From: Candidatus Poribacteria bacterium
GTDB taxonomy: Bacteria; Poribacteria; WGA-4E; GCA-2687025
Reading direction: 5' to 3'
DNA: 64,000 nucleotides
NCBI GenBank assembly: GCA_963665845.2
Contig: OY762492.1
Location: 1,632,001-1,696,000 of the forward strand
The position numbers were made by a program, and so were the translations under genes. Below the pieces are notes generated by a model. That model worked only from the letters and a program-made list of their open reading frames with translations. It did not search any database and had not been told where the DNA came from. Positions 27,355 to 61,409 of this stretch are shown piece by piece (positions within the stretch are counted from its first letter, which is position 1; each line of letters starts with the position of its first letter).

Positions 27355-27357
27355 GCG

Positions 27358-42389: not shown

Positions 42390-42926
42390 ATGAGCGAACG
42401 AAGCGGAACGAAACGAAAACAGCATCGAGACCCCTGGCACGAACTGCGCGCCGCGCTGATCCAGGCGCAGGCGCAGCTGGACGCCGAGCATGAATGGCGG
42501 GAAGGATGGGCGGATCTACTCAACGGCGCGTTGGAGGCGGTTGACAGGTTCGAGGCGCGGCAAAAAGACATACGCCGCCTCAACCCCATCGCGGAGCGGC
42601 TGGCGGTGGAGGAATGCCGCGATGTCCGGCTAGAGCTCGCATACGCCTTGAACGAGGCGCTGGATCGATTGAGAGCCTTGACCAAATTTCGGAGCGAAAT
42701 GCGCCGTCATGCGCTCGCTTTAGAATCGTCGGGCAAAGAAAAAAACGGGTTTGCGGCGGCGCTTCTCCGCGTCAGCCGCTCGCTGGAAGCGGCGACGATT
42801 GAAGATGCCTACAAGGTTGTTGATGATATTCAGAGGGAGAATTCGCTCCAAGCCGCCCGCTATCTGGGGACCCAAATCAAAACGGGCGGGCGGACTTTCA
42901 CACGGGATGAAATGAATGAGCGTTGA
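42390..42926 (+). CDS. Putative antitoxin with long helical N-terminus, copy 1
   Basis: Ends GRTFTRDEMNER, a VapB-type tail, and overlaps the PIN gene. TTGACA..CATAAT promoter upstream. Confidence 0.7.
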   Translation: MSERSGTKRKQHRDPWHELRAALIQAQAQLDAEHEWREGWADLLNGALEAVDRFEARQKDIRRLNPIAERLAVEECRDVRLELAYALNEALDRLRALTKFRSEMRRHALALESSGKEKNGFAAALLRVSRSLEAATIEDAYKVVDDIQRENSLQAARYLGTQIKTGGRTFTRDEMNER

Positions 42927-43359
42927 CCATTTTTTGGACTCGAACATCGTCATCTACTACTATGACGATCAAAGTCCCAGAAAGAAAGCAAAAGCGAGGC
43001 GCATGGTGAACAGCGCGCTCGATAATGAAAACGGCTGCGTCAGCTTCCAGGTCGTTCAAGAAACAATGTACGTCATCAGGAAAAAGCTACGGGTGGACGA
43101 TAAGGACGCCGAATTCATGCTGAACAACATACTGCTGCAGCTTTGGGAAGCGAATCCCGTGTGGGAAACCGACCCGACGCCGGAAATGTACCAACGCGCC
43201 TTCGATCTCCATAAACGGCGCGGAATCGCCAACTTCTACGACTGCGTCATCGCCGTAAACGCTCTGGACGCCGGATGCGCCACGATCTACACAGAAGACG
43301 CAGGTCTGCTACACGCCCAGCGGGTTGAGGATGTGGACATCGTCAACCCGTTCAATTAA
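42916..43359 (+). CDS. PIN-domain (VapC-like) toxin
   Basis: FLDSNIVIY, SFQVVQE, FYDCVI, YTED. Confidence 0.88.
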   Translation: MSVDHFLDSNIVIYYYDDQSPRKKAKARRMVNSALDNENGCVSFQVVQETMYVIRKKLRVDDKDAEFMLNNILLQLWEANPVWETDPTPEMYQRAFDLHKRRGIANFYDCVIAVNALDAGCATIYTEDAGLLHAQRVEDVDIVNPFN

Positions 43360-43394
43360 AATAGAGACTGAACTCAAAAAACGGAGAGCGGGGC

Positions 43395-43931
43395 ATGGCT
43401 GAACGAAGCGGAACGGAACGAAAACAGCATCGAGACCCCTGGAACGAACTGCGCGCCGCGCTGATCCAGGCGCAGGCGCAGCTGGACGCCGAGCATGAAT
43501 GGCGGGAAGGATGGGCGGAGCTACTCAACGGCGCGTTGGAGGCGGTCGACAGGCTCGAGGCGCGGCAAAAAGACATACGCCGCCTCAACCCCATCGCGGA
43601 GCGGCTGGCGGTGGAGGAATGCCGCGATGTCCGGCTAGAGCTTGGATACGCCCTGAACGAGGCGCTGGATCGATTGAGAGCCTTGACCAAATTTCGGAGC
43701 GAAATGCGCCGTCATGCCATAGCTCTAGAATCGTCGGGCGGAGAAAAAAACGGGTTTGCGGCGGCGCTGCTGCGCGTCAGTCGGTCGCTGGAAGCGGCGA
43801 AGATGGAAGACGCCTACAAGGTTGTTAGCGAAATTCGGAAGGAGAATTCGCTCCAGAGCCTTCGGTATCTGGAGACCCGAATCAAAACGGGCGGACGCAC
43901 TTTCACACGGGATGAAATGAATGAGCGTTGA
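43395..43931 (+). CDS. Putative antitoxin, copy 2 (orphan)
   Basis: Near-identical to 42390..42926. Confidence 0.7.
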   Translation: MAERSGTERKQHRDPWNELRAALIQAQAQLDAEHEWREGWAELLNGALEAVDRLEARQKDIRRLNPIAERLAVEECRDVRLELGYALNEALDRLRALTKFRSEMRRHAIALESSGGEKNGFAAALLRVSRSLEAAKMEDAYKVVSEIRKENSLQSLRYLETRIKTGGRTFTRDEMNER

Positions 43932-44126
43932 CCATTTTTTGGACTCCAACCCTTTCAATTCCGCCGTCATTCCCGCTTCTCCTCGTCATTCCCGCTTCTC
44001 CTCGTCATTCCCGCGTAAGCGGGAATCTTAAAGCAACGCAGCCGCCGCGCGCGGCGGAAACCCCCCTGCCCCCCTTTTCAAGGGGGGAGTCTGAAGGATG
44101 TTGACATCGTCAACCCGTTCAACTAA
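43921..44126 (+). pseudogene. PIN toxin remnant: both ends kept, middle replaced by a REP block
   Basis: First 30 bp (MSVDHFLDSN) and last ~32 bp (DVDIVNPFN*) flank 144 bp of REP-B/REP-A sequence. Confidence 0.85.
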
Positions 44127-44164
44127 GATAGACCCTGAACTCAAAACGAAGACGGAGAACGAGC

Positions 44165-47100: not shown

Positions 47101-47347
47101 CTGCTGGTTCATCGACACCGATTACAACGGCGAAAGCTTTTTTGTGCGCCATGCCTATTTCATCGGCGCGGACGACCCGTATAAGCAGTTGAAGACGACC
47201 TTGAAAGCGGAGATCAACCAAGAGGCATGGGAGTCCCTGCGCGGCAACCTCTCGCGCCCGTTTCCGCGCCCGTCTTCGGGGATGATCGCCGTCAAGGTCA
47301 TCAACCGCTTCGGCGATGAGGCGATGCGCGAATTCCAGATTGAATAG
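44165..47347 (+). CDS. Type III R-M Mod subunit (amino-methyltransferase, beta class) with in-frame ~150-aa insertion
   Basis: YIDPPYG, LVLDPTCGSGTT; AT-rich TRD at about 44925-45440; C-terminal AVKVINRFGDE. Confidence 0.92.
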   Translation: MAKKARTPKTVEHTKHEDAKRKNNPTAEFQNLVSDEIKRPVPVHIKRPNPDLDPQLVWHGKDASSLDEMVVNAPSLYIQEKIQPKAIIDGLMRLAETNAPDEDQGALFADFNGVPENAQTEFYQHDAKWSNRMILGDSLHVMASLAERENLRGQVQCVYIDPPYGIKFNSNFQWSTQTRDVKDGNAAHITREPEQVKAFRDTWENGVHSYLGYLRDRITAARELLNETGSCFVQIGDENVHRVRAIMDEVFGPENYISLITFTKTSPLGTKLIANRCDYIVWYARDKEIVKYRPLFVSKNVGRGTAYSHIEFPDGSKRRLSSNDSNLPKNIDYFVLGNLLSTGFTKTCYYDFDFEGRTVPQGRYSWKTTKNGMERLIRMGRVYGQGLRPGYVQKFSDFPVQTLDHLWNDTGGAQNRRYVVETTSKVIQRCILMTTDPGDLVLDPTCGSGTTAYVAEQWGRRWIVIDTSRVALALARMRLMGARYPYYLLSDTPEGQQKEADLERRAVSEAPTYGMIRQGFVYERVPHITLKAIANNREIDEIWERHEERLRPLREELSSAAGLAEPLEEWEVPRELPDGWHSASEPLLSRFWRDRAARQKEIDASIAAAAEYEQLFDKPFEDKRKVRVAGPFTVDSLSPVRSVPVDSNGDPRLKEQEAAETKDFAETILEALRASGVQQTDKADRIKFESLEPFGGKFIAAEGVYTEGDEKKTAGVYIGPEYNAVSDIELTMAAKEAAAAMHDVLIACGFSFDPQAAKRLNRGRMRILHARMNADLHMGADLKNTGIGNLFIIFGEPDITVGSEKWIVDSEGKWIAPYDIFALVSGLDRMEEVNGLRREDLHAYARLSRRREIWDDLADAAGVVVDTGEHRGGSGASHNGGISTFAWHCAGVFSGGRDLSDIVGAIGDDRLREFKALVDRLRGDQQNASRADEVSGIPPIDSVHYPLTTAHFHQVRINGVDIFDPRKGEPKSHDIDGIACWFIDTDYNGESFFVRHAYFIGADDPYKQLKTTLKAEINQEAWESLRGNLSRPFPRPSSGMIAVKVINRFGDEAMREFQIE
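46564..47018 (+). mobile_element. Inverted-repeat-bounded IVS-like element inside mod
   Basis: 30-bp IRs built of 7-mers: AGTGGGCAGTGAAAAGTGGATCGTGGACAG (46564-46593) and CTGTCCACTATCCACTGACGACTGCCCACT (46989-47018), 25/30 complementary. Confidence 0.8.
46617..46985 (+). CDS. Four-helix-bundle protein (23S rRNA-IVP/Avd-like family), nested in mod in the +1 frame
   Basis: SYRDLIVWKKSM, FPADERFGMISQMRRASSSIPANIAEG, FLHSLGIARGSLAEVET; full length with ATG and TAG. Confidence 0.9.
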   Translation: MTSLRSYRDLIVWKKSMDFAVKIYTLTRGFPADERFGMISQMRRASSSIPANIAEGQARRTTGEFLHSLGIARGSLAEVETFLILSARLEMIGSESLKRLLTDCEEISKMLHGLMKSLASRR

Positions 47348-47457: not shown

Positions 47458-48003
47458 ATGACCGAACGAAGCGGAACGGAACGAAAACAGCATCGAGACC
47501 CTTGGAACGAACTGCGCGCCGCTCTCATCCAGGCGCAGGCGCAGCTGGCGCAGTTGGACGTCGAGCCTGAACGGCGGGAGAACTGGACTCCTCTTCTCGA
47601 CGGCGCATTGGAGGCGGTCAACAGGTTCAAGGCGCGTCAAAAAGAGATACCCGGTCTCCGCCGCGCCGCGGAGCGTCTGGCGGTGGAGGAATGCCGCGAC
47701 GCTCGGAGGGCGTTCGGACGCGCCCTGAGCGAGTCGCTGGATCAGTTGAGAACCCTGACCAAGTTTCGAGGCGAGATGCGCCGTCATGCCCTCGCTCTAG
47801 AATCGTCGGGCGGAGAAAAAAACGGGTTTGCGGCGGCGCTTCTCCGCGTCAGTCGGTCGCTGGAAGCGGCGGCGCTTGAGGATGACTACGATACTCTTCT
47901 GAAAGTTCGGGGGGAGAATTCGGTTCAAATCGGCCGCTATCTGCAGACCCGAATCAAAACGGGCGGACGTACCTTCACACGGGATGAAATGAATGAGCGT
48001 TGA
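47458..48003 (+). CDS. Putative antitoxin with long helical N-terminus, copy 3
   Basis: Diverged paralog ending FTRDEMNER. Confidence 0.7.
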   Translation: MTERSGTERKQHRDPWNELRAALIQAQAQLAQLDVEPERRENWTPLLDGALEAVNRFKARQKEIPGLRRAAERLAVEECRDARRAFGRALSESLDQLRTLTKFRGEMRRHALALESSGGEKNGFAAALLRVSRSLEAAALEDDYDTLLKVRGENSVQIGRYLQTRIKTGGRTFTRDEMNER

Positions 48004-48436
48004 TCATTTTTTGGACTCCAACATCGTCATTTACTACTATGACGATCGAAGTCCGGAAAAGAAAGCAAAAGCGACGCTTCTGGTTGACAGCGCGCTTAAA
48101 AATCAAAACGGCTGCATCAGCTACCAGGTCGTTCAAGAGACAATGTATGTCGTCAGGAAAAAGCTGCGGGTGGACGATAATGACGCCGAAACCATGCTGA
48201 ATGACAGACTATTGCCGCTTTGGGAAGCGAATCCCGCGCGGGAGATCGACCCGACGCCGGAAATGTACCTACGCGCTTTTGATCTCCAGAAACGGCGCGG
48301 AATCGCCAATTTCTATGATTGCGTCATCGCCGTGAACGCTCTCGACGCTGGATGCTCAACGCTCTATACAGAAGACGCGGGTCTGCTCCATGCCCAGCGG
48401 GTTGAGGATGTGGACATCGTCAACCCGTTCATCTAA
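47993..48436 (+). CDS. PIN-domain (VapC-like) toxin, copy 2
   Basis: Paralog of 42916..43359. Confidence 0.88.
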   Translation: MSVDHFLDSNIVIYYYDDRSPEKKAKATLLVDSALKNQNGCISYQVVQETMYVVRKKLRVDDNDAETMLNDRLLPLWEANPAREIDPTPEMYLRAFDLQKRRGIANFYDCVIAVNALDAGCSTLYTEDAGLLHAQRVEDVDIVNPFI

Positions 48437-48517
48437 AATAGGGCTGGACTTAAAAAACGGAGAGCGGCGCAATTTGACAACGCGTCAAAGGGCGTTGGCG
48501 GTTGAACGGAGAGTAAA

Positions 48518-49033
48518 ATGGCGGCTGTTGCATCCAAGAACGCGGAATTTTATCTCAAACGCGGTCGGCTCTATGCCGACAAGGGCAAACTAGAGCGCGC
48601 CGCTGCGGAATACGCCAAGGCGGTAGAGCTGCAGCCCGACGACCCGACAGCGTATCGTTTCCGCGCAGAAGCGTACCGCGCAGCGGGCGATCTTTGCCGC
48701 GCCCTTGCCGACATCAACAAGGCGGTTGATCTGGACCTTTACGACGCGCAGGCGTTCATGCTCCGCGGGCTGATCTATAAAGACAGGGGCGAGATGGCCG
48801 ATTACGAAGAGGAGTTTCGCGTCGCCGTCCTGCTTGACGGCGAGCTGGTGAACCATGAAACGCATGGGGCGGAATTTGCGCGTATCCTGAAAGCTGACGA
48901 GGAAGAGGAGGCGGAGTGGGACGAACTCGCCAGCCGGCCGGAAGCGAAGGCGCTGTTTGAGGAATGGGAAGCGGAAGCGATGGAGGAGTATCGAGCGGGG
49001 AAAACGAAGCCTTTGGATCCTGAGGATCTATAA
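48518..49033 (+). CDS. TPR protein fused to an acidic antitoxin-like tail (type B)
   Basis: About 3 TPRs, then EEEEAEWDELA..EAMEEYRAGKTKPLDPEDL; TAATG overlap with the toxin. Confidence 0.75.
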   Translation: MAAVASKNAEFYLKRGRLYADKGKLERAAAEYAKAVELQPDDPTAYRFRAEAYRAAGDLCRALADINKAVDLDLYDAQAFMLRGLIYKDRGEMADYEEEFRVAVLLDGELVNHETHGAEFARILKADEEEEAEWDELASRPEAKALFEEWEAEAMEEYRAGKTKPLDPEDL

Positions 49034-49314
49034 TGCGCTCGCGCACATCTTCGCGGTTTCGAAGGCAATTCAGGCGTCTTCCAAAAGAAGTCCGGCAAAA
49101 GGCAAAAGCGGCATACCGCCTATTTGAAACGAACCCCCGCCATCCCGCCTTACAATTTAAAAAATTACGCGGCAGCGACCGCAGATATTCGGTTCGTTTC
49201 TATAAAAAATACCGCGCTCTCGCAAGAAGAACAGATGAGGGCGACCTCGAATGGTATTCTATTGGATCGCATGCGACATACGACCAGGATATAAATAATA
49301 AGAAGTTGGGATAA
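49033..49314 (+). CDS. RelE/ParE-superfamily toxin
   Basis: FRRQFRRLP, NPRHPALQFKKL, SVR...YRAL, WYSIGSHATYD. Confidence 0.85.
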   Translation: MRSRTSSRFRRQFRRLPKEVRQKAKAAYRLFETNPRHPALQFKKLRGSDRRYSVRFYKKYRALARRTDEGDLEWYSIGSHATYDQDINNKKLG

Positions 49315-49377
49315 ATCCGCATGGTTCTCGCGCCCAAAACCGCTATAATGCGCTCAAACCCATCATGAAAGGCGCCC

Positions 49378-52300
49378 ATGCGCAAACCCGTCATCGACAA
49401 CCAGGACAAGAGCGATACGCTTCTCGACCGCCTCAAGCCCCGTCTCAAGGGCGCGGACGCCTTGCGCGTCGTCTCCGCCTATTTCTCCATCTACGGCTTC
49501 GGCGCGCTCGCCGACCAGCTCCGCCCCCTCAAAGAGACCCGCTTCCTCTACGGCGACCCAGGCTCCATCGACGACATCGACCCCGGCGAAAAAACCGACC
49601 GCGCCTTCTACCTGCACGATGAACGGCTCGCGCCGACCGAAGCGCTGCGCCAAAAAGCGCTCGCCGAACAGTGCGAGAAATGGGTGCGGCAGCGCCGTAC
49701 CAAAATACGCGCCATCGCCCGCTCCAATTTCCTCCACGGCAAAATGTGGCATATCGACAAAAAAGACGCGCCGTTCGCCGTCGTCGGAAGCTCCAACTTC
49801 ACCCAGCGCGGACTCGGCGCCGGCGCGGCGCCGAACATTGAGATCAACCTCGCCGCGGACGACCCGCAAACATGCAAAGAACTGCGCGACTGGTTCGACG
49901 ACCTATGGAACGACGAGACGAAGGTCATAGATGTCAAACTGGAGGTTCTGAAAGCGCTGCGCCGCATCGGGCGCGAATGGGGCGCCGAAAGCGTCTATTT
50001 CAAAACGCTCTATGCGCTGTTCAAAGACGACTGGCAGGCGATCCAAGACAGCGACGCGGAACTCAAAAGCCTCAAACTGACCGACGCGCAGATATGGAAC
50101 GCGCTGTACCAGTTTCAAAAAGACGGCGTCCACAGCATTCTCAAAAGCCTAAATAGCCACAACGGATGCCTGCTCGCCGACAGCGTCGGCCTCGGAAAAA
50201 CGTACGCCGCCCTCGCCGTCATCAAGTATCACGAACTGCGCAATGAGCGCGTCCTCGTGCTCTGTCCGCGCAAACTGCGGGAGCAGTGGGCGTTGTATCT
50301 CAGCGCGGCGGGGCAAGAAGGCAACCCGTTTCTAAAAGACAGGTTCAACTACTCGCTGCTCTCCCATACCGACCTCTCCCGCGACAAAGGAATCGTCGGA
50401 AACATCGATCTCGCCAACTTCAACTGGAGCTCCTTCGATCTGGTCGTCATCGACGAATCGCACAACTTCCGCAACCCGGACGGGAAGCGTTACCAAAAAC
50501 TGATCAAAGAGATCATCAAGGAAAGCGTCAACACAAAAGTGCTGATGCTCTCCGCGACCCCCGTCAACACCTCCCTCATCGACCTGCGCAACCAGATCTA
50601 TCTCATGACCGAAGGGCGCGACGACGCCTTCGCGCCAAGCCTCAACATACACAGCCTCAAACGGACCCTCCGAAACGCCCAAGAGCAGTTCAACGCATGG
50701 AGTCCTGAAGACGGCAAACAGGGGCTTCTGGAGACGCTCGGCGCCGACTTCCAAAGCATTCTCGCCGCCGTCACCGTCTCCCGATCTAGAAAGCAGATCG
50801 AGACCTTTTACAGAGCCGACATGGAACGAGTCGGCGCCTTCCCAACACGCGACGACCCTGTCAACCTCTACCCCCCCACCGACACAGAAAAACAGCTCTC
50901 CTATGAGAAGCTGGCGGAGCAGATTGAGCAGTTCCAGCTCTCCATCTACACCCCCACCAACTATCTCATCAGCCTAGCGAGGCGGGCGGAACTGGACGCG
51001 GAAAAGAAACGGCGCAACTTCAACCAGCAAGACCGAGAACGGTTCCTGATCGGAATGATACGGGTCAACTTCCTCAAACGGCTCGAAAGCGCCCCCCACT
51101 CGCTCAAGTTGACGCTGCAGCGGACGGTCAAAAAAATCAGCGATCTCATCGACAAGATCGACCGTTACAGCGGGCGGCCGTCCAGCGACGCGGAGCTGAA
51201 CGAAGAGACGGCGCCTTACGAAACCGATGTGGAGGAAGACGACGATCTCATCGTCAACAAAGGCAAAAATCCGTTCAAGCTAAGCGAACTGGATGTCCAA
51301 ACATGGCGCGAAGACCTTGTCAAAGACAGGGACATCCTGAACGAAGCGCTGCGTCAGGTGGCGGCGGTCGCGCCCGAACGAGACGGCAAACTGGATGAGA
51401 TCAAGCGGCTGATACGCCGGCGCGCCGAGTACCCGTCCCTCGACCAAAACGGCAAGGAATGCCGCAAGCTGATTGTCTACACCACCTTCAAAGACACGGC
51501 GCTGTATCTCTATCGCCAGCTGGAGCCGCTGACGAAGGAGCTGGGGTTGAAGATGGCGATGGTCGCGGGATCGGAAACGCATACGGAGCATGGCGACAAC
51601 AATTTCCACGCCATACTCAACAACTTCGCCCCCTTCGGACGCAAGGGCGAAGGCGCCGCCGCCGACCCCGACATCGACCTGCTCATCGCCACCGACTGCG
51701 TCTCGGAAGGCATGAACCTCCAAGACTGCGACCGCATCGTCAACTACGACATCCACTGGAACCCGGTGCGCATCATTCAGCGGTTCGGGCGCATCGACCG
51801 CATCGGCAGCAAAAGCCGCTCCATAAAGATGACGAACTTTTGGCCGACCGAGGACATGGAGGTATACCTGAAACTGGAAAGCCGCGTCCGGTCGCGCATG
51901 GCGCTGGCGGACATCGCCGCCACAGGCGAAGACGACCCGCTCGACATCCAAGAGGAGCTGCAACTCGCCGAAAAAGAGCTGACCCTCCGATACAAGCAGC
52001 TGCGCAAAATGAAAGAGGAAGGCGCCTACATAGAGGAGCTGGACGACGCGCCCGCCATGAGCGACTTCTCCTTCGCGCGCTTCGTCGGGCAACTGAACGA
52101 ATACCTGCGCCAACGGCAATACGAGCTGGAGAACATGCCGGACGGCGCCTACGCGGTCGTCAAGCGGGACGAGGGCGCGGAGCCGGGCATCCTCTTCTTC
52201 CTGCGCCAAACAAACGCCGACCCTGAAAACCCAGACAAATCCGCAAGCCCCGTCGCCCCGCATTACGCCGTCTATGTCCAAGACGACGGAACGATACGCC

Positions 52301-52635
52301 ACGGATGCGCCAACGCCCAGCAGATACTCGACATCTTTGAAGCCGCCGCCGTCGGCAAAACGGAACCGATACAGGACATGTGCGACCTGTTCAACATGGA
52401 AACGGAAAACGGACAGAAAATGGCGCGGTACGACGATCTGATCCAAGCCGCGGCAGACGACATCAAAACGGCGTACGCCGCCGCCATTGAAAAAAATATA
52501 GCGGGCGGCGACCGCAACTTCATGCTGCCCGTCTACGAGAACGCGCCGCGAGACCTGAACGACTTTACACTGGTCACATGGCTTGTTATACTGGACGCCG
52601 ATCATGAACGTTATGAAACGGGGTACGGCGTATGA
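49378..52635 (+). CDS. PLD-nuclease plus SNF2-type helicase
   Basis: LHGKMW..GSSNFT (PLD); LADSVGLGKT, DESHNFRN, LSATP, SEGMNLQD, QRFGRIDRIG. Confidence 0.9.
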   Translation: MRKPVIDNQDKSDTLLDRLKPRLKGADALRVVSAYFSIYGFGALADQLRPLKETRFLYGDPGSIDDIDPGEKTDRAFYLHDERLAPTEALRQKALAEQCEKWVRQRRTKIRAIARSNFLHGKMWHIDKKDAPFAVVGSSNFTQRGLGAGAAPNIEINLAADDPQTCKELRDWFDDLWNDETKVIDVKLEVLKALRRIGREWGAESVYFKTLYALFKDDWQAIQDSDAELKSLKLTDAQIWNALYQFQKDGVHSILKSLNSHNGCLLADSVGLGKTYAALAVIKYHELRNERVLVLCPRKLREQWALYLSAAGQEGNPFLKDRFNYSLLSHTDLSRDKGIVGNIDLANFNWSSFDLVVIDESHNFRNPDGKRYQKLIKEIIKESVNTKVLMLSATPVNTSLIDLRNQIYLMTEGRDDAFAPSLNIHSLKRTLRNAQEQFNAWSPEDGKQGLLETLGADFQSILAAVTVSRSRKQIETFYRADMERVGAFPTRDDPVNLYPPTDTEKQLSYEKLAEQIEQFQLSIYTPTNYLISLARRAELDAEKKRRNFNQQDRERFLIGMIRVNFLKRLESAPHSLKLTLQRTVKKISDLIDKIDRYSGRPSSDAELNEETAPYETDVEEDDDLIVNKGKNPFKLSELDVQTWREDLVKDRDILNEALRQVAAVAPERDGKLDEIKRLIRRRAEYPSLDQNGKECRKLIVYTTFKDTALYLYRQLEPLTKELGLKMAMVAGSETHTEHGDNNFHAILNNFAPFGRKGEGAAADPDIDLLIATDCVSEGMNLQDCDRIVNYDIHWNPVRIIQRFGRIDRIGSKSRSIKMTNFWPTEDMEVYLKLESRVRSRMALADIAATGEDDPLDIQEELQLAEKELTLRYKQLRKMKEEGAYIEELDDAPAMSDFSFARFVGQLNEYLRQRQYELENMPDGAYAVVKRDEGAEPGILFFLRQTNADPENPDKSASPVAPHYAVYVQDDGTIRHGCANAQQILDIFEAAAVGKTEPIQDMCDLFNMETENGQKMARYDDLIQAAADDIKTAYAAAIEKNIAGGDRNFMLPVYENAPRDLNDFTLVTWLVILDADHERYETGYGV

Positions 52636-55600
52636 TGCGAGCCAGAATCGAGGCGGGACTGGAAAAGGCGGCGGAGGCGGACAACTTCCACGACGGAGCC
52701 AACCAGCTGCTCAAGACGCTCGGATATGAAAGCGGGCGGCGTGGGCTGACAACCTTCAAACCCAAAAAGTTTGTCGAAGAATTTCCAAATCCGCGCGGCG
52801 CCGGAACGCAAACCGAATTGAGATTTCTGAAGGAGGTACAATCGACCCGCATCCTGTTTCAAATGACCGACGACGAGGTGAACCAAGCCGCCCAGAGACG
52901 AACAGGCGAGATGACGCTATTTGAAAGCGGCGGGTCAGAGATGGACGAGTCGGTCGATAGAAGCTTCTTTTTTGCGTCGGTGGAGCTGAACGGCGAGTCG
53001 TATTCGCGCGGAAAATACGCCGAATTCACCCGCGAACTGAATAAACGGCTCCCCATCGCCACCGTCGCCCTCTTTAGAACGCAAAGCCGCCGCATCTCCA
53101 TCGCGCTAGCGGATCGCCGGGAACATAAAGCCGAGAAAGGAAGAGCCGTACTCGGGCGCGTCTCCCTCCTGCGCGAAATCGACCCCGGCAACATGCGCTC
53201 CGACGCCAACATACTGGAAGACCTGACCCTAAACAATCGAATCGAATGGATGCAAGACCTGGCGAAAAACGCCGAAAAGCGCAACTTCGACGGGCTGCGC
53301 AAAGCATGGCTCGACACGCTCGACACCGAATCGCTCAACAAGCGGTTCTATAAAGAACTGAAAGCATGGTTCGACCGCGTCGTTGAGGAGGCGACGTTCC
53401 CGACGACGAAAACGCAAACGCAGCAGGATCATGCTATCCGCCTCATCACCCGCATGCTGTTCATCTGGTTCATGAAAGAAAAGGGGCTGGTGAACAAGAA
53501 CCTGTTTAATCCAAAGCAGGTCGCGCCGCTGCTGCGGAATTGGAACATCGTCAGCGGGGATTCCTACTACCGAGCCGTCCTCCAAAATCTGTTCTTTGCG
53601 ACGCTCAACACGCCCATTGATCTGCGCGACTTCAGCAGGTTAGACAATTCGACGCGTCACATCCCGAATCCGTACAGGTATGCAGATCTGATGACCGACC
53701 CCGTCGAGCTAAGGGATCTCTTTAAGAAAACGCCCTTTATTAACGGCGGCCTCTTCGAGTGTCTTGACGATCTTGAAGGCGTCAATCCAGGCGGAAAACA
53801 GGTCGACTGCTTCACCGACGATACGGATCAACGCAAAGAGATGTCCGTTCCCGACGATACGGATCAACGCAAAGAGATGTCCGTACCCAACAGCCTCTTC
53901 TTCGACAAAAAGAACGGGCTGTTCAATCTGTTTAAAGGGTATAAGTTCACCGTCGAAGAGAACACGCCGATAGAGCAGGAGGTGGCGCTGGACCCCGAAC
54001 TGTTGGGAAACGTGTTTGAAAACCTGCTGGCGGAGATGAACCCTGAAACGCGCGACACCGCCCGTAAAATGACCGGCTCCTACTACACCCCGCGCGACGT
54101 CGTGAACTACATGACGAAAGAAGCGCTGGCGGCGGCGCTCGCCCAAAAGGTTCAGTCCGACCCCAAAAACGCCGATGACTGGGATGAAAACCTGAACGTA
54201 CTTCTAGACGACGAGAAGGCATGGGACGAAGCGGGAGATCTGTTTTCAGACGGGGAAAAGCGGCGGCTGACGGAAGGCATCGCCGACCTGAAAATACTGG
54301 ATCCTGCTGTCGGGTCCGGCGCCTTTCCGATGGCGGCGCTCCTGAAATTGACGATGGCGCTGCGACGCATAGATCCAAAGAACGAATTATGGGAGGATGT
54401 TCTGCTGAAACGCGCACGCGATCAAGCGGAGAAGGTCATCGGCCAGGAGCAAGATAACGAGCGGTACCATAAACAGATGGGGGAGATCAAGAAGACCTTT
54501 GACAGATTACGAGATTCAGATTACGGGCGGAAGCTGTTTCTCATTCAAAACAACATCTTCGGCGTCGACATTCAGCGCATCGCATGCCAGATCGCCAAGC
54601 TGCGCTTCTTCATCACCCTCGCCATCGAACAGGAATCGAACAAGGACGAGGATAATTATGGCATCAAACCGCTGCCAAACTTGGAGACCCGCTTTGTCGC
54701 CGCCGACGCGCTCCTGTCGCTCCATCCGAAATCCGATAAACCTCAGAAACTGAGATCCGAACTGACCGATCAACTTAAACAGGAAATACATGAGAACCGC
54801 CGGCGGTATTTTCTAGCCAACGAGCACGACGAAAAAAATATCCTCAAAGGCGAAAATGAGATTCTGCGGGGAAAGCTGTCGAAACAGCTGAAAACGATGA
54901 AATGGACGGACATAGCGGCGGAGCGAATCGCCAACTGGGATTCGTTCAGCCAAACAGACGACCCCGCCGACTGGTTCGACCCAGAGTATATGTTCGGCGT
55001 CCGATACGGGTTCGACGTCGTCATCGGCAACCCGCCCTATGTCCAGCTGCAGAAAAACGGCGGAGAGCTGGGGGAAAAATACCAAAACACAGGCAAAGAC
55101 CGAAAAACACGTTTTGAGACCTTCGCCCGCACAGGCGACATCTACTGCCTCTTTTATGAGCAGGCGCTGAACCTGGCGGCGGAGGGCGGATGCGCCTGCC
55201 TCATCACCTCCAATAAATGGATGCGCTCCGACTACGGCAAAAAGCTGCGCGACCTGTTCGTTGAAAAGATAAGCCCCGCCCTGCTGATCGATATGGGTCC
55301 GGGCGTTTTTGAGGCGTCGGTCGATACGAACATTCTGCTATTGAGGAAAGCCGCCCCCCTTCCCAACGCTGTCATAAACAGCGTTGAGATGAAGCCCGAC
55401 TTCAGCCGGCAGCAGGGCGGCGTCGGCGAGTATGTCCGGAAGAACGGCGTTGAGATGCCGGTTCCGGACGCTGGATATCCATGGACGATCGCCTCCGCCG
55501 TTGAGCTGAACATTCTGAAGAAGATGCGCGATGTCGGGACGCCGCTAAAGGAATGGGATGTAAACATCAATCGCGGCGTGACCATCGGATGCAATGACGC

Positions 55601-56303
55601 TTTCATCATTGACGCCGACACGCGCAGTCGTTTAGCGTTTGAAGATCCTAGATCAGACGAGATACTGAAGCAGATTCTGCGCGGACGCGACATACAAAGA
55701 TGGGTTCCAGAATGGGCAGGGCTGTGGTTGATAGATTCTCATAATGGCTTTGGCGATACGCCGCCCATCGATATGGACGACTACCCAGCTGTCAAAGCAT
55801 GGCTAGACCATTTCTACCCTAGACTTGAGAAACGTCAAGATAAAGGGAAGACTCCTTACAACCTCCGCAGCTGCGCTTACCATGAGGCTTTTTCCGAAGA
55901 GAAGCTGATGTGGAAAGATATTGCCACAAGCGGATATTTTACCTACGTCAACGTACCCATGTTTTGCAACAATACCAGTTATATTATGACCGGAACTTCG
56001 CTTAAATACCTATGCGCCGTCTTGAATTCTCGATTGGTAACGTGGTTTATGAGAAAAGCCGCTGCTGGGCTGGGACAGAAAGCGATTCGCTGGATCGCAA
56101 CGTATGTTAATCGCCTGCCCATCCCGCGTCCGCCGACGCCGGAAGTGGAGTCCGCGCTGGTTCTTTTAGTGGACGCAATCTTGTCGAAGAAGGCGTCCGA
56201 TCCAGGGGCGGATGTGTCGCGGTTGGAGGAGAAGATTGACGGCATGGTGTATGATCTTTACGGCTTGACGGAGGAGGAGCGCGCTGCCGTTTCCGGCGGC
56301 TAG
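52632..56303 (+). CDS. Eco57I/type IIG-like N6-adenine methyltransferase with TaqI_C-like TRD
   Basis: GSYYTP, LDPAVGSGAF, FGVDI, GNPPY, GRDI, YNLRSCAY, LNS; C-terminal LYGLTEEE. Confidence 0.9.
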   Translation: MMRARIEAGLEKAAEADNFHDGANQLLKTLGYESGRRGLTTFKPKKFVEEFPNPRGAGTQTELRFLKEVQSTRILFQMTDDEVNQAAQRRTGEMTLFESGGSEMDESVDRSFFFASVELNGESYSRGKYAEFTRELNKRLPIATVALFRTQSRRISIALADRREHKAEKGRAVLGRVSLLREIDPGNMRSDANILEDLTLNNRIEWMQDLAKNAEKRNFDGLRKAWLDTLDTESLNKRFYKELKAWFDRVVEEATFPTTKTQTQQDHAIRLITRMLFIWFMKEKGLVNKNLFNPKQVAPLLRNWNIVSGDSYYRAVLQNLFFATLNTPIDLRDFSRLDNSTRHIPNPYRYADLMTDPVELRDLFKKTPFINGGLFECLDDLEGVNPGGKQVDCFTDDTDQRKEMSVPDDTDQRKEMSVPNSLFFDKKNGLFNLFKGYKFTVEENTPIEQEVALDPELLGNVFENLLAEMNPETRDTARKMTGSYYTPRDVVNYMTKEALAAALAQKVQSDPKNADDWDENLNVLLDDEKAWDEAGDLFSDGEKRRLTEGIADLKILDPAVGSGAFPMAALLKLTMALRRIDPKNELWEDVLLKRARDQAEKVIGQEQDNERYHKQMGEIKKTFDRLRDSDYGRKLFLIQNNIFGVDIQRIACQIAKLRFFITLAIEQESNKDEDNYGIKPLPNLETRFVAADALLSLHPKSDKPQKLRSELTDQLKQEIHENRRRYFLANEHDEKNILKGENEILRGKLSKQLKTMKWTDIAAERIANWDSFSQTDDPADWFDPEYMFGVRYGFDVVIGNPPYVQLQKNGGELGEKYQNTGKDRKTRFETFARTGDIYCLFYEQALNLAAEGGCACLITSNKWMRSDYGKKLRDLFVEKISPALLIDMGPGVFEASVDTNILLLRKAAPLPNAVINSVEMKPDFSRQQGGVGEYVRKNGVEMPVPDAGYPWTIASAVELNILKKMRDVGTPLKEWDVNINRGVTIGCNDAFIIDADTRSRLAFEDPRSDEILKQILRGRDIQRWVPEWAGLWLIDSHNGFGDTPPIDMDDYPAVKAWLDHFYPRLEKRQDKGKTPYNLRSCAYHEAFSEEKLMWKDIATSGYFTYVNVPMFCNNTSYIMTGTSLKYLCAVLNSRLVTWFMRKAAAGLGQKAIRWIATYVNRLPIPRPPTPEVESALVLLVDAILSKKASDPGADVSRLEEKIDGMVYDLYGLTEEERAAVSGG
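53815..53886 (+). repeat. In-frame 36-bp tandem duplication (DDTDQRKEMSVP x2)
   Basis: Two copies with one mismatch. Confidence 0.9.
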
Positions 56304-56337
56304 CGCCCTCCCGCGCCCGATTCCCCCCCCTTGAAAA

Positions 56338-57601
56338 GGGTACTACACGTTTGACTAGATAAGCGGATTGCGCTACACTAAAGGGAGATTGAGAAAGGAA
56401 ATTCCAATGCAGTCTACCAGTATCTACGAGATTTTTGAAAAATATCCCGATGAAAAAAGCGCCGCCCGATTCTTTGAAGAAAGCCGATGGACGAATGGCA
56501 TCTGCTGCCCCCGATGCGATTCCAAAAACATCGCCCGAGTGAAAAACGCCAAACCGATGCCGCTCAGATGCCGAACATGCCGCAAGTATTTCAGCGTCCG
56601 CACGGGAACAATCATGGAGAAAAGCAAAATCCCCCTCCATATGTGGCTTCTGGCGCTCTATTTGTTCCTGACGTTTAAGAAGGGCGTATCGAGCGTTACG
56701 ATGGGTAAGCTACTGGGCATAAGGCAGGACTCCGCATGGTCCCTAGGCCACCGCATCCGAGCCTCGATGGTAAGCGACGACGAAATGCTGAGCGGAACCG
56801 TGGAGATAGACGAGGTCTACGTCGGCGGCAAAGAGGGTAGTAAGCATCGCAGAAAAAAGCTGGGCGTCGGAAGCGGAACCCGCGGCAAGCAGACCGTGAT
56901 CGGCATGCGTCAAAGAAACGGCGAAATCCGCGCGTTTCTGCTGGACAATATGAAGATAAAAACGGTTCATGGCGCTGTAAGGGCGAATGTGGCGCCTGGG
57001 TCAACCGTTTATACCGACGCTCTCCCGACCTACAAGGGCATGGAGGAATACGCGCATGCCGCTGTCTCGCATCAGAAAGGCGAGTATGTTCGCGGCGATG
57101 TTCACACCAACAGCATCGAGTCGTTCTGGGCCGTCCTGAAACGCGGGTACCGCGGCGTTTACCATTACATGTCGTTTAAACACCTGGGTTTATACGTCAA
57201 AGAATTCGTCTACCGGTTCAATGTTGGAAACGACAACCGCATCGAAACGCTTGCCAAGATTGTTCCGCGCATGGTCGGTAAACGCCTTACTTACGCGGAT
57301 CTGGTGAAATAAAGCGGTTGCAGTTCTAAAACCTGTGAGGCAGGATACATGCAGGCATCGTGCGTATGGTTGCAGCGGTAGATTGTGCCGAATGCGCCAA
57401 AACAAGCGCGAAAGCGGAAATAACATCGGCAGTTCTAGGAGATGAAATGAAATGGGCTGGCAGTGTTGCGTCCAACGCAACGCCGCCAGCCCGAGATGAG
57501 TCGTAAGCAACGAATTACGGCAAGAAAAAACGTAAAAAAAAACGCAACGCTGAAAACAATGGCGGGGTATATGCCTCTGGCAAATCAAACGTGTAGTTCC
57601 C
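56338..57601 (+). mobile_element. IS1595-family insertion sequence with 8-bp TSD, inserted in a REP-A
   Basis: TIRs GGGTACTACACGTTTGA / TCAAACGTGTAGTTCCC; CTTGAAAA at 56330-56337 and 57602-57609. Confidence 0.92.
56407..57312 (+). CDS. IS1595-family DDE transposase
   Basis: CPRC..CRTC zinc ribbon; VEIDEVYVGG, YTD, HTNSIESFW..KR, EFVYRFN. Confidence 0.93.
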   Translation: MQSTSIYEIFEKYPDEKSAARFFEESRWTNGICCPRCDSKNIARVKNAKPMPLRCRTCRKYFSVRTGTIMEKSKIPLHMWLLALYLFLTFKKGVSSVTMGKLLGIRQDSAWSLGHRIRASMVSDDEMLSGTVEIDEVYVGGKEGSKHRRKKLGVGSGTRGKQTVIGMRQRNGEIRAFLLDNMKIKTVHGAVRANVAPGSTVYTDALPTYKGMEEYAHAAVSHQKGEYVRGDVHTNSIESFWAVLKRGYRGVYHYMSFKHLGLYVKEFVYRFNVGNDNRIETLAKIVPRMVGKRLTYADLVK

Positions 57602-57629
57602 CTTGAAAAGGGGGGCTAGGGGGGTTTAG

Positions 57630-57689
57630 CGCGTCTACAACCCTTACGGCTTGACGCCCGACGAAATCGCCGCCATCTCCGGCGGATAA
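57630..57689 (+). pseudogene. Orphan C-terminal remnant of the type IIG gene (1)
   Basis: RVYNPYGLTPDEIAAISGG* versus MVYDLYGLTEEERAAVSGG* in the intact gene. Confidence 0.75.
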
Positions 57690-57881
57690 GGCTGTCGCGC
57701 CCCATTCCGTCATTCCCGCGTAAGCGGGAATCCAGAGACGCTGCAGAAGCCGTCAGCACTCCCATGCCGACATGTCGCAACTAAACCCTTAAGGTCATCG
57801 CTTTGGAGTTGACACTTTGCCCGATCATACGTTATACTACTGTAGGAGACGATTCCAGAGGATGAATGAAGGAGGTCGAGG

Positions 57882-58274
57882 ATGAAACGGGCACGGTTCG
57901 ATATTCGTAGACTCGAAAACAAAAGGAGATGGCGTCGTCGCCCGGCTGTCAGTGACGTACGACATCTAAATAACAGACAGCGAAGAGGAAGGAAAAGGAG
58001 CATGAGCCGCAATAACAGCAGACAAACCTTGACAATTGAGCGCATTGAGCGCATTGGACGCGTTGAACGCATTGAGCGCATCGAAATCCCCCTTGGTTTC
58101 AACCCCTTTGATGAGATAACCATCAAGGCGCGCGAGGAGCCGATCATACCGTTTAAAAAACGCGAAGAGTGTTCCAAAGGTTCATTCAAAGCATGCAAGC
58201 GGTGCGAAGTCATAACTCAGATTCTCAAACTCTTGCGCTGGCTATTGATATTCTTGGGTTTCCCTTCTTGCTGA
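57882..58274 (+). CDS. Small basic hypothetical protein with IER repeats and a C-terminal hydrophobic stretch
   Basis: TTGACA-18-TATACT promoter near 57810, AAGGAGGT RBS, lower GC; alternative start at 58002. Confidence 0.5.
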   Translation: MKRARFDIRRLENKRRWRRRPAVSDVRHLNNRQRRGRKRSMSRNNSRQTLTIERIERIGRVERIERIEIPLGFNPFDEITIKAREEPIIPFKKREECSKGSFKACKRCEVITQILKLLRWLLIFLGFPSC

Positions 58275-58280
58275 ACAAGA

Positions 58281-58400
58281 TCGAAGAAAGCGTCCGATCC
58301 GTCGGCGAACGTCTCGGCGTTGGAGGCGCAGATCGACGAGCGCGTCTACGCCCTTTACGGCTTGACGGACGCGGAGCGCGCCGTCGTTTCCGTCGGCTAA
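58281..58400 (+). pseudogene. Orphan C-terminal remnant of the type IIG gene (2)
   Basis: SKKASDPSANVSALEAQIDERVYALYGLTDAERAVVSVG*, followed by the same CGCCCTCCCGC flank as the intact gene. Confidence 0.8.
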
Positions 58401-58480
58401 CGCCCTCCCGCTTGACAATGCAGTACGCATCGTCTACACTTTCTGAAAGATTCGCTGGCAGGGTTGAATGGAGCGAGTAA

Positions 58481-59566
58481 ATGGCGGTTGTGGGCGTTGA
58501 GACGCTTAGCGGATGGGATAACCCCGTGGACCTGCGTTCCCTGGTCGATCCCGATCATCTGAGAAGTAAAATGTCGGGCGCCCAAACGGATAGCGCGGCA
58601 ATCGCTCTCATTCGCGGCATCGACAGCTTCGAAAAAGGCGATCTTGACGACGCGCTGGAGAAGGTGAACGCCGCCATAAAGCAGTTGCGCGATTATGCGC
58701 CGGCTTACGTTGTTCGTGGCTGGATCTACTTGTCAAAGGGCGATCTTAAGCGCGCATTGGCGGATTGCGTATCGGCGATAAAGCTGGACCCGAACGATGC
58801 GCATCCTTATTTCACCCGCGCTTGGATTCACTCGCGACAAGGCCGTTTCGACCTTTCCCTGGCAGACCTCTCAAAGGCGATAGAGAAGCAGCCTGATTTT
58901 GCAAAGGCGTATTCTATTCGCGCCGCTCTTCATAGACGCAACGGCGACCATAACGACGCGATCGCCGACCTCGACAAGGCGATAGAGCTGCAGCCTAATT
59001 ATCCGATGGCATATATCTTCCGCGCCATGGTGTGTCGGGAAATGGGCGATCTTGACAGTGGGATCGCCGACCTCAATAGGTCGATAGAGCTGAAGTCCGA
59101 TGATCCGACGGCGTATATGAACAGAGCCGCCCTGTACCGCGCAAAGGGCGACCTTGCTACAGCCCTTGCCGACATGAACAAGGCGGCGGAGCTCAACATG
59201 GACATCCCGCAGATCTTATTGCGGCGAGGGGGTCTTTACGCTGAAATGGGCGATCTCGACAGCTCCATCGCGGACTACACCAAGGCGGTTGAGCTGCAGC
59301 CCGATTTTGCGGAGGCGTATATCCATCGCGCCGAGATCTATCGGGCAATGGGAAACCCAGGGCGCGCCAACGAAGACATGGCAAAAGTCGCGCTGCTGAA
59401 TCCGCCCAACTACGCCCCATCGATCCCGCTGCCCGATCCGTACGGCAAAAAGAAGAAAATGACCATGTCCGCCGCAGGAAGCTGGAAAGGTCTCATTGAC
59501 GGCGAGAAGTTAATACGCGAAATCTATGAAGCGCGGAAAAACAGCCTTCGCGCGTATAAACCGTAG
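58481..59566 (+). CDS. TPR protein (~8 repeats) fused to an antitoxin-like tail (type A)
   Basis: TPRs, then KKKMTMSAAGSWKGLIDGEKLIREIYEARK; 3 bp upstream of vapC. Confidence 0.78.
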   Translation: MAVVGVETLSGWDNPVDLRSLVDPDHLRSKMSGAQTDSAAIALIRGIDSFEKGDLDDALEKVNAAIKQLRDYAPAYVVRGWIYLSKGDLKRALADCVSAIKLDPNDAHPYFTRAWIHSRQGRFDLSLADLSKAIEKQPDFAKAYSIRAALHRRNGDHNDAIADLDKAIELQPNYPMAYIFRAMVCREMGDLDSGIADLNRSIELKSDDPTAYMNRAALYRAKGDLATALADMNKAAELNMDIPQILLRRGGLYAEMGDLDSSIADYTKAVELQPDFAEAYIHRAEIYRAMGNPGRANEDMAKVALLNPPNYAPSIPLPDPYGKKKKMTMSAAGSWKGLIDGEKLIREIYEARKNSLRAYKP

Positions 59567-59569
59567 CCC

Positions 59570-59980
59570 ATGCAGTATCTGATCGATACGGATTGGGCGA
59601 TCCACTATTTAAGGGGCGCGCCGGCTGTGATTGAGCGTGTGAACGAGCTTCTGGACGACGGCATCGGAATCAGCGTCATCGCGCTTGTTGAACTTTACAG
59701 GGGCGTTCCTGCCGCACGCGATCCCCAGAGCGCTAAGCAGCATATTGAGCAGTTTGTTGCGCGCCTTGAGGTCGTCCCGCTAGACAAGCCCGCTTGCGAG
59801 ATATTTGCGAGTGAGTCCGTGAGGTTAAAATCCGCCAACAATCTCATAGACGATTATGACCTGTTGATCGGCGCGACCGCATTGAGCCGCGGCTTGACGC
59901 TGTTGACAAACAACCGCCGACACTTTAAGCGGATAGAGGGCTTGAGTATCGTTTCGGTCGATAAGCCTACCTCCTCTTGA
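59570..59980 (+). CDS. vapC: VapC/PIN toxin
   Basis: YLIDTDW, SVIALVELY, DYDLLIGATAL, LTNNRRHFKRI. Confidence 0.9.
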   Translation: MQYLIDTDWAIHYLRGAPAVIERVNELLDDGIGISVIALVELYRGVPAARDPQSAKQHIEQFVARLEVVPLDKPACEIFASESVRLKSANNLIDDYDLLIGATALSRGLTLLTNNRRHFKRIEGLSIVSVDKPTSS

Positions 59981-60069
59981 ACGGCGCCGCCCCTCCCGCT
60001 TCTTGACAACGCATAGCCGCGTCCGGCACACTTTAGGCAGCGTCGGCAAGGTTGAATGGAGGGAGTACC

Positions 60070-60594
60070 ATGGCGGTGTCAGCATCCAAGGACGCAGAAT
60101 TCTATCTGAAACGCGGTCGGCTCTACGCCGACAAGGGCAAACTGGCGCGCGCCGCCGCAGAATACGCCAAGGCGATAAAGCTGCTACCCGACGACCCGAA
60201 GGCGTATCGTCTCCGCGCAGAGGCGTATCGGGAAAAGGGCGACCTTGACCGCGCCCTTGACGACATGAACAAGGCGGCGGAGCTCAACATCTACGATGCG
60301 CAGACATTTTTACGAAGAGGACTGCTTCACAAGGAAATGGGAAGGACAGCGGACTATGAGGAAGATTTTCGAATCGCCGTTTTGCTCAACCGCGAACTGG
60401 TCAACCATGAAACGCATGGGGCGGAGTTTGCGCGTATCCTGAAAGCTGACGAGGAAGAGGAGGCGAAATGGGAAGAGACGTTCAAGCTGCCCGAATCGCA
60501 AGCCTTCTTGAAAGAGATGGCGGAAGAGGCGTTGGAGGCGCACCGTCAGGGCAAAACGAAGCCGCTTGAGTTAGAGGATTTTGACAACGCCTAG
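60070..60594 (+). CDS. TPR plus type B antitoxin tail (orphan, no toxin)
   Basis: Paralog of 48518..49033. Confidence 0.75.
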   Translation: MAVSASKDAEFYLKRGRLYADKGKLARAAAEYAKAIKLLPDDPKAYRLRAEAYREKGDLDRALDDMNKAAELNIYDAQTFLRRGLLHKEMGRTADYEEDFRIAVLLNRELVNHETHGAEFARILKADEEEEAKWEETFKLPESQAFLKEMAEEALEAHRQGKTKPLELEDFDNA

Positions 60595-60647
60595 GCGCGT
60601 CTGGCATACTTTCGGCAGCGTCGGCAAGGTTGAATGGAGAGAGTACC

Positions 60648-61337
60648 ATGGCGGTGTCGGCATCCAAGGACGCAGAATTCTATCTGAAACGCGGTCGGCT
60701 CTACGCCGACAAGGGCAAACTGGAGCGCGCCCTCGCCGATTTTGACAAGGCGATAGAGCTGCAGCCTAATTATCCGATGGCATATATCTTCCGCGCCATG
60801 GTGTATCGGGAAATGGGCGACCTTGACAGCGGGATCGCCGACCTCGACAGGTCGATAGAGCTGCAGTCCGATGATCCGACGGCGTATATGAACAGAGCCG
60901 CCCTGTACCGCGCAAAGGGCGACCTTGCTACAGCCCTTGCCGACATGAACAAGGCGGCGGAGCTCAACATGGACATCCCGCAGATCTTATTGCGGCGGGG
61001 AGGGCTTTACGCTGAAATGGGCGATCTCGACAGCTCCATCGCGGACTACACCAAGGCGGTTGAGCTGCAGCCCGATTTTGCGGAGGCGTATATCCATCGC
61101 GCCGAGATCTATCGGGCAATGGGAAACCCTGAGCGCGCCAACGAAGACATGGCAAAAGTCGCGCTGCTGAATCCGCCCAACTACGCCCCGTCGATCCCGC
61201 TGCCCGATCCGTACGGCAAAAAGAAGAAAATGACCATGTCCGCCGCAGGAAGCTGGAAAGGTCTCATTGACGGCGAGAAGTTGATACGCGAAATCTACGA
61301 AGCGCGGAAAAACAGCCTTCGCGCGTATAAACCGTAG
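60648..61337 (+). CDS. Chimeric TPR plus type A antitoxin tail
   Basis: 5' end matches the 60070 gene; the remainder is near-identical to the 3' part of the 58481 gene. Confidence 0.8.
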   Translation: MAVSASKDAEFYLKRGRLYADKGKLERALADFDKAIELQPNYPMAYIFRAMVYREMGDLDSGIADLDRSIELQSDDPTAYMNRAALYRAKGDLATALADMNKAAELNMDIPQILLRRGGLYAEMGDLDSSIADYTKAVELQPDFAEAYIHRAEIYRAMGNPERANEDMAKVALLNPPNYAPSIPLPDPYGKKKKMTMSAAGSWKGLIDGEKLIREIYEARKNSLRAYKP

Positions 61338-61340
61338 CCC

Positions 61341-61409
61341 ATGCGCTATCTGATCGATACGGAATATAGACAAGGCAAAACGAAGCCGCTTAAGTTAGAA
61401 GACCTGTAA
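61341..61409 (+). pseudogene. Deletion scar: vapC start fused to type B antitoxin end
   Basis: MRYLIDT joined to EYRQGKTKPLKLEDL*. Confidence 0.8.

Follow-up and report, generated by a model that had tools for sequence, protein, structure and literature searches.

Tetratricopeptide repeat arrays fused to predicted antitoxins of at least three families in Candidatus Poribacteria

In the genome of a bacterium of the uncultured phylum Candidatus Poribacteria, a 64,000-nt stretch of DNA (contig OY762492.1, positions 1,632,001 to 1,696,000; here called the window) carries genes in which tetratricopeptide repeats (TPRs) are joined in frame to predicted antitoxins of toxin-antitoxin (TA) systems of type II. 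In this genome (G000) and its relatives, the fusions involve at least three, probably four, predicted antitoxin families, three of which are unrelated, and each type of fusion precedes the toxin gene with which its predicted antitoxin family is usually paired. The pairs have several features of type II TA systems, i.e., adjacent and co-oriented genes with the putative antitoxin first, a toxin of a known family that keeps its fold and active-site residues, and a partner homologous to known or predicted antitoxins, and every toxin and antitoxin module falls within a type II TA family that is known or predicted. Homology and gene order make it very probable that the tails bind and neutralise the toxins. 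We propose that TPR-antitoxin fusions with sensor-gated toxin release are the best explanation of these genes, a reading to which we give a probability of about 0.42. An earlier note on this DNA had counted two fused antitoxin families, which is too few. Coordinates without a prefix are positions in the window, and G001 denotes a congeneric genome.

TPR-antitoxin genes and the families of their tails

The gene B1 (48518-49033, + strand) encodes a 171-aa protein with three TPRs and a type B predicted antitoxin, which ends W..EYRAGKTKPLDPEDL. The antitoxin part spans residues about 93-171, of which residues 119-171 (48872-49030) align with a stand-alone 74-aa protein at 51% identity over the final 53 residues. 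The next gene (49033-49314, +) encodes a putative RelE-fold toxin of 93 aa (Pfam ParE_like PF24732, E 5e-10), and the B1 stop and the toxin start share 1 nt at 49033. Further downstream, A1 (58481-59566, +) encodes 361 aa with eight TPRs and, in the tail AAGSWKGLIDGEKLIREIY, the C-terminal part of the AF2212/DUF104 (COG2880) predicted antitoxin, whose motif lies at 59468-59536. After a gap of 3 nt it is followed by a gene for a putative VapC toxin of the PIN type (59570-59980, +; Pfam PIN, 1e-13), which matches the NCBIfam VapC model NF047863 with an E of 3e-27, under that model's cut-off, and retains the acidic residues D5/D7, E42 and D98 plus N115/N116, all of which we take to be PIN residues. 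These spacings bear out the earlier placing of TPR genes in the antitoxin position beside a RelE/ParE toxin and a VapC; the coupling to toxins claimed at the same time applies to B1 and A1 but not to the other two TPR-antitoxin genes, B2 and A2.

B2 (60070-60594, +) is a TPR-type B fusion with 70% identity to B1 and no toxin gene downstream. A2 (60648-61337, +), likewise without a toxin gene, has five TPRs and a type A tail and is a mosaic in which a B-type first TPR is joined to the 3' 611 nt of A1 (96.7% identical). Behind A2 lies a deletion scar of 22 codons (61341-61409, +), in which the opening codons of a VapC copy run straight into the last part of a type B tail; this indicates that a VapC plus most of a B gene was lost there. 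Contigs of three public runs agree with the region with 0-3 differences, and the depth over the segment common to A1 and A2 is about double that of its flanks, which together rule out an assembly artefact. The Pfam matches in all four proteins are of TPR type only, with no STAND NTPase. Promoter-like sites were found for A1 (58412-58440, +; sigma-70-like, TTGACA-17-TACACT) and for A2 (60581-60610, inside the 3' end of B2); taken alone, the sigma-70-like matches are weak, at two sites vs. 1.5 expected. A palindrome 5' of B1, TTGAC-N5-GTCAA (48474-48488), overlaps a -35-like hexamer and is possibly an operator.

The tails alone matched no family in Pfam or NCBIfam, and the best ESM Atlas scores of the two tails, 0.82 and 0.84, were under the useful range. 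A profile built from nine type B tails of G000 and searched against 1.84 billion representative proteins (taxa not given) matched 283 proteins; of the 150 best, 129 have no more than 120 aa and 14 have TPRs. Pfam was run on 78 of these 150 and assigned no family to 71, while the remaining ones include single matches to DUF2281, helix-turn-helix (HTH), DUF433 and DUF2442, which show that the type B module is also placed behind other N-terminal domains. Within the phylum the type B tail occurs in 50 of 151 genomes, at 12 places in G000, at 11 in G001 and in short frames in the other 48; 11 of 18 short-frame loci examined consist of an open reading frame (ORF) of ~72 aa followed directly by an intact RelE-like ORF. 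Full-length type B fusions are also found in G001 and several further assemblies. On this distribution, the type B fusion is recent and, among the genomes searched, genus-limited, but it has expanded. In an AlphaFold model (pLDDT 94.8), B1 is a single all-helical chain in which the third TPR continues into the tail helices, and Foldseek with this model returned TPR proteins only. A register drawn by eye, in which the whole stand-alone protein would be retained with its first helix as the last TPR helix, was rejected: the similarity is not significant (best 1.0 bit), and therefore only the last 53 residues are claimed.

The toxin model finds its best Foldseek matches in the RelE proteins of E. 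coli and M. jannaschii (E about 2e-5), with YafQ and YoeB also matched; the nearest solved folds are thus those of mRNases and not of gyrase-inhibiting ParE, which speaks against the ParE half of the earlier label RelE/ParE. Its conserved residues are Y60-R61, W74, G78 and H80, and a sequence search of the PDB found no solved relative. The B1 pair shares with RelBE-type TA systems (E. coli RelE 4FXE, M. jannaschii 3BPQ, YafQ and YoeB) the toxin fold, size, translational coupling and an acidic helical partner upstream. It differs from them in that the type B partner, for which Pfam has no model and in which Pfam and NCBIfam scans recognised no DNA-binding domain, is fused to TPRs, in the genomes searched only within genus g1. 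In G000, a TPR ORF lies directly upstream of all five Pfam ParE_like matches and of 7/7 RelE-like, 3/3 DUF3368 and 1/1 VapC ORFs, the RelE and DUF3368 profiles being partly derived from those same genes. A reverse survey of 54 RelE-like ORFs at 50 loci (the 30 best and 20 hand-picked of about 490 matches) found an upstream TPR gene in only four, all of G000 or G001, and in 0 of the 50 RelE-like genes sampled from other Poribacteria. Set against each other, these counts argue that the pairing is not due to chance.

Several loci show further arrangements of type B. In G001, three tandem and intact TPR-type B/RelE-like pairs (L056:2504-5239) have diverged in their tails and toxins, which suggests specificity divergence following duplication. 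At L197-L203 of other Poribacteria, a 100-aa protein with a HicB-like start (by eye) and a type B-like tail precedes a RelE-like toxin. At G000:C1:1112361, 2515846 and 802143, TPR genes with the type B front end have lost the antitoxin tail, with no toxin behind them.

A word-index search with the 58-aa type A tail returned no candidate, and in 150 other genomes the tail gave two weak matches, both small Pfam AF2212-like proteins, one of which (L033) precedes a VapC 40% identical to the window VapC. From the VapC side, nine homologues were found in six phylum genomes, each with a small upstream ORF; six of these ORFs match the type A tail (E <1e-5 in a 9-sequence comparison; best 17/23 identical), and Pfam AF2212-like was confirmed on two stand-alone proteins upstream of VapC relatives. 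The tail bears the C-terminal G.WK..ID......IYE.R segment of AF2212-like/DUF104 proteins, in the same place upstream of VapC. Makarova et al. (2009, PMC2701414) predicted AF2212/DUF104 (COG2880), with its AbrB-like barrel, to be a PIN antitoxin, and 'TPR' does not occur in the main text of their paper. Type A shares with COG2880/DUF104-PIN pairs the C-terminus and a VapC from the same clade, whereas their AbrB-like DNA-binding barrel (PF01954), which stand-alone relatives retain, is replaced by five to eight TPRs; PF01954 is missing from A1 and A2 and has 0 matches across G000. Type A is predicted to work like AF2212 antitoxins, yet it lies outside the Pfam family. A search for fused A-type proteins found one more, P0163, and none in G001; types A and B both look genus-limited.

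An iterated TPR profile detected 65 TPR ORFs in G000, of which 19 end in antitoxin-type tails and 46 do not. Four genes (G000:C1:1300781-1310269), with 1 to 20 repeats and Pfam UPF0175 at the end, form type C, and three of them precede DUF3368 PIN genes, with PF03683 and PF11848 both above cut-off. Type C retains nearly the whole UPF0175, HTH included, and E41, E83 and D101 of the DUF3368 toxin are invariant in 60 sequences. UPF0175 (COG2886) and COG2405/DUF3368 PIN are an already predicted pair, and TPRs are mentioned in neither of the two papers concerned (PMC5499597; PMC2701414). The usual length of UPF0175 is about 80-100 aa, whereas in type C it forms the end of 170-1350-aa proteins that have 1-30 TPRs and, in some cases, a TIR or FRG domain: in other Poribacteria, TIR-TPR-UPF0175 (L042, L044 and L046) and FRG-TPR-UPF0175 (L040) precede DUF3368 PIN genes. 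All three partner families (type B, AF2212 and UPF0175) are themselves predicted antitoxins.

Among 371 UPF0175 matches in Poribacteria, about 64 of the 150 listed are in long frames (hand count), and all of 20 hand-picked long ORFs have TPRs, 17 of them with at least a partial DUF3368 gene behind. A survey of TPR-toxin pairs in related genomes, as the earlier note had advised, found type B pairs in G000 and G001, and in 86 of 176 phylum genomes, which belong to four families and 7 of 31 genera, a profile of the type C junction found a match (E <=1e-45). In GTDB, the 79 best loci, ahead of 121 weaker matches, comprise 75 from Poribacteria and 4 from unnamed bacteria. Stand-alone small proteins that precede the same toxin families are homologues of both tails described in the earlier note, whose statements that the tails resemble the C-termini of small antitoxins and are unrelated to each other stand. 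The idea that the TPRs replace the usual N-terminal domain is right for type A, where the barrel is gone, but not for type B, in which at least 53 of 74 residues are kept, nor for type C.

A 181-aa helical domain is fused to TPRs once in G000 (G000:C1:3493623-3495647) and also in P0014. The same domain occurs without TPRs before PIN genes, e.g., at 47458-48003, where this protein, which has no Pfam match, and the following PIN gene take up 47458-48436 (+). Its position, plus one weak match outside G000, makes this type D probably a fourth predicted antitoxin family. P0014 combines a B1-type front (81% over 125 aa) with a type D tail (61% over 166 aa), and one 5' leader, conserved in seven genes, is common to A- and B-type fused genes; this combination and the shared leader indicate that tails were exchanged on a common front end. 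Gene spacing at 12 antitoxin/toxin loci ranges from -10 to +4 nt. Tandem pairs of a helical protein of 178-182 aa (ending GGRxFTxxExNER, no Pfam match) and a PIN protein are located at 42378-43931, 47458-48436 and G000:C1:3609022-3612255; there are seven copies in G000, several with frameshifted PIN genes, and none was found in G001.

Repeat evolution and association with defence genes

Compared with G001 orthologues, pN/pS is 0.29 for the TPRs of B1, 0.27 for its tail and 0.36 for its toxin. For 146 reciprocal-best pairs of type C repeats, pN/pS is 0.11 at framework positions, 0.32 (0.26-0.38) in the groove and 0.33 at other surface positions, where the groove comprises TPR positions 2, 5, 6, 9, 12 and 13, which we take to form the ligand groove. 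Within one gene, the most variable repeat columns are groove positions 5, 9, 12 and 13, with ratios near 1 (63 pairs). Ligand-binding TPRs vary most at groove positions. Purifying ratios together with this variability argue that the repeats have a function and that they differ among themselves in the manner of ligand-binding TPRs. They are not diversifying quickly between strains, and the variation is chiefly in copy number.

The methyltransferase load of G000 is extreme, with 69 N6/N4 (PF01555) and 20 Eco57I-type (PF07669) matches in 4.0 Mb, and with 89 such matches proximity needed a background control. A methyltransferase lies within 5 kb of 10 of 14 TPR-antitoxin loci, vs. 19% of random positions (binomial P 3e-5), and of 11 of 45 other TPR ORFs; three TPR-antitoxin loci lie among housekeeping genes. 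The defence-island setting proposed earlier is thus confirmed as an island rich in restriction-modification (RM) genes, and the association is genome-wide. The type C toxin matches PADLOC PDC-S70 (E 2e-44). When a PDC-S70 cluster of cold-seep origin was placed in E. coli, the plating of T4, T5 and T7 fell by 100-1000-fold (bioRxiv 10.1101/2024.09.26.614923); the likeness of type C to PDC-S70 is that of the toxin.

What the repeat arrays may do

We propose that the single-chain TPR-antitoxin neutralises the product of the gene directly behind it, a RelE-fold or VapC RNase, and that the TPR array may be the protein-binding input that meets a foreign, probably phage, protein. Binding of this ligand would displace, expose or destabilise the antitoxin part and free the toxin, and the freed RNase would cleave RNA so that translation would stop in the infected cell. 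This reading is favoured because the same protein-binding scaffold was taken up in three or four independent fusions, because the arrays reach 30 conserved repeats and may have immune-type TIR domains in front, and because the loci track defence genes. In the model of type B, the last TPR reaches the antitoxin helices without a linker, so that direct conformational coupling would be possible. In-frame fusion, cognate pairing, repeated origin, module swapping and purifying selection we regard as established at the level of the genes. The full picture of receptor-gated TA immunity, with a swappable receptor of 1-30 TPRs, sometimes joined by TIR or FRG, on three or four antitoxins, and with a phage or other foreign protein freeing the RNase, is a more doubtful proposition.

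Several observations weigh against gating by a sensor. TPR-free partners accompany the same toxins in most Poribacteria, and the TPR is therefore not required for the existence of the pair. Of 79 type C loci, 23 keep a whole fusion but have no intact toxin, 5 of the 12 type B genes of G000 likewise lack an intact toxin (the other seven have one), and many fusions carry only 1-3 repeats. The abundant TPR genes (65 ORFs), which lie beside TA pairs, provide ample opportunity for fusion, and TA pairs generally cluster with RM genes, so that context does not single out sensing. Diversifying selection, which might be expected of a sensor in a fast arms race, was not seen at the six groove positions over the 146 repeat pairs, and the repeats inside one gene are only 56% identical (median), in contrast to the repeats of fungal NLRs, which shuffle fast; NLR-like diversifying repeats are not supported by this identity and by pN/pS.

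Two other accounts, an addiction guard and a passive scaffold, explain much of the same data as the sensor model. In an addiction guard, the TPR protein would have its own job, with TIR, with FRG or as a plain adaptor, and the C-terminal antitoxin would make its gene unlosable: once the recombination-prone array suffered a frameshift, stop or deletion, the antitoxin would be lost and the toxin would kill. The antitoxin is always C-terminal and would show whether the whole frame is intact, large cargo at the N-terminus is free to vary, and two truncated type B tails of G000 are located at a broken or missing toxin. Among the 79 type C loci, split fusions number 0 of 54 with an intact toxin (all 54 being whole) vs. 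2 of 25 without, but these counts include kin, so that they are descriptive, and just two split cases are too few for a test. Minimal versions of 1-3 repeats, with little cargo to protect, are left unexplained, and the effect follows from any such fusion, is compatible with the sensor model and would operate alongside a sensor or scaffold; as the main reason for the fusions, we think a guard unlikely. A passive scaffold, also improbable in our judgement, would have arisen by deletions in repeat-rich islands that fused TPR genes to adjacent TA genes, and would be kept because the TPR makes the short antitoxin more stable or soluble and provides a promoter, with no ligand-triggered release. An isolated Phd-C neutralising element indeed needed fusion to a stabilising SUMO tag in order to work (PMC10440598). 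TPR genes neighbour stand-alone TA pairs in other Poribacteria (e.g., at L024), the scar at 61341-61409 and the mosaic A2 indicate that deletion-fusion is frequent here, groove and other surface positions evolve alike, and type A, which lacks a DNA-binding domain, uses the leader of the TPR gene. A mere tag, however, needs neither 10-30 conserved repeats nor TIR or FRG domains, the most variable columns within a gene are those of the groove, and the maintenance of the type C junction in about half of the genomes and four families, like the presence of TPRs before all RelE-like toxins of G000, suggests a benefit.

A third account, in which an internal start yields the antitoxin as a separate product and makes the TPR fusion incidental, was examined by scoring in-register codons and Shine-Dalgarno energies in 22 type B and 24 type C genes. 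It draws on Met93 of B1, whose codon stands in the register of the stand-alone start with a weak Shine-Dalgarno score (-5.7 kcal/mol), and on an ATG with a score of -10.8 just 5' of the UPF0175 core in the four type C genes of G000. Only 3 of the 22 type B genes, B1 included, have an ATG in that register, however, and 10 have no ATG, GTG or TTG in the region; the type C ATG is missing from the other 20 genes, and the ATGs in type A tails score -1.5 to -1.7 and would give products of 33-35 aa. No stop separates the TPR part from the tail in intact fusions, which are single ORFs without a conserved internal start, and separate translation of the tails, which the earlier note had raised against its own proposal, is thus very improbable: on these sequences it cannot be the general rule, though it may apply to B1 and to the type C genes of G000.

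In Avs and other STAND-TPR antiphage receptors, TPR arrays bind phage proteins and switch on an effector. These receptors need a STAND NTPase and have the effector in cis, whereas the TPR fusions have no NTPase and would act via the antitoxin. Like the TPR fusions, PanA (Panacea) antitoxins combine one proposed sensor domain with several unrelated neutralising modules and different toxins (PMC10440598), but Panacea is a globular domain and the TPR array a series of repeats of variable length; in PanA, neutralisation was tested and sensing is a hypothesis (Ernits et al., 2023). In HigBAC and CmdTAC, a phage structural protein is sensed by a protein-binding module linked to the antitoxin, and a toxin that targets translation is thereby freed (bioRxiv 10.1101/2024.02.24.581848), and the fused CapRel is likewise described as phage-sensing (10.1101/2023.12.08.570793). 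The model is the one proposed for the TPR fusions, with sensing demonstrated there and hypothetical here. The sensor of toxin-antitoxin-chaperone systems is a separate SecB-like chaperone and that of CapRel lies within the toxin-antitoxin fusion, so that neither a SecB gene nor the TPR is held in common; no SecB-like third gene was found among the neighbours scanned, and the window pairs adjoin RM, PIN or TPR genes. A literature search, with most subscription papers outside its coverage, found no description of a TPR-antitoxin fusion.

Few type II TA systems have known triggers, and a key question is whether the repeat array gives a TA pair a trigger or just makes a repeat gene unlosable; either answer would be new, and sister genomes, in which the same pairs occur without TPRs, supply natural controls. 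The TPR expansion of Poribacteria is usually read as one of host-interaction proteins. A part of it would gain a concrete cytoplasmic and defence-linked role. TA surveys restricted to small antitoxins overlook partners of up to 1350 aa. If true, receptor-gated TA would be an NTPase-free counterpart of NLR/Avs receptors in half of the genomes of the phylum.

Other genes of the window

Type III restriction and methyltransferase genes (39320-47347, +) lie upstream of B1, and a PLD-SNF2 helicase (49378-52635, +) and a Type IIG restriction endonuclease-methyltransferase (52632-56303, +) lie between the RelE-fold toxin gene and A1. An IS1595-family element with terminal inverted repeats adjoins the Type IIG gene, whose 3' end recurs twice downstream as remnants in the same region (56324-57615, 57628-57700 and 58281-58411). 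Tandem paralogues starting MNLDALAETIETLKKRIERHRQELSENETR (26407-30796, -) are restriction-endonuclease-like by eye; the one scanned has no Pfam match at E 1e-6. An ORF at 46572-46985, predicted to encode a 23S_rRNA_IVP/bAvd-like four-helix bundle (E 9e-40), is nested within the Type III methyltransferase ORF (44165-47347), on its strand but in a different frame.

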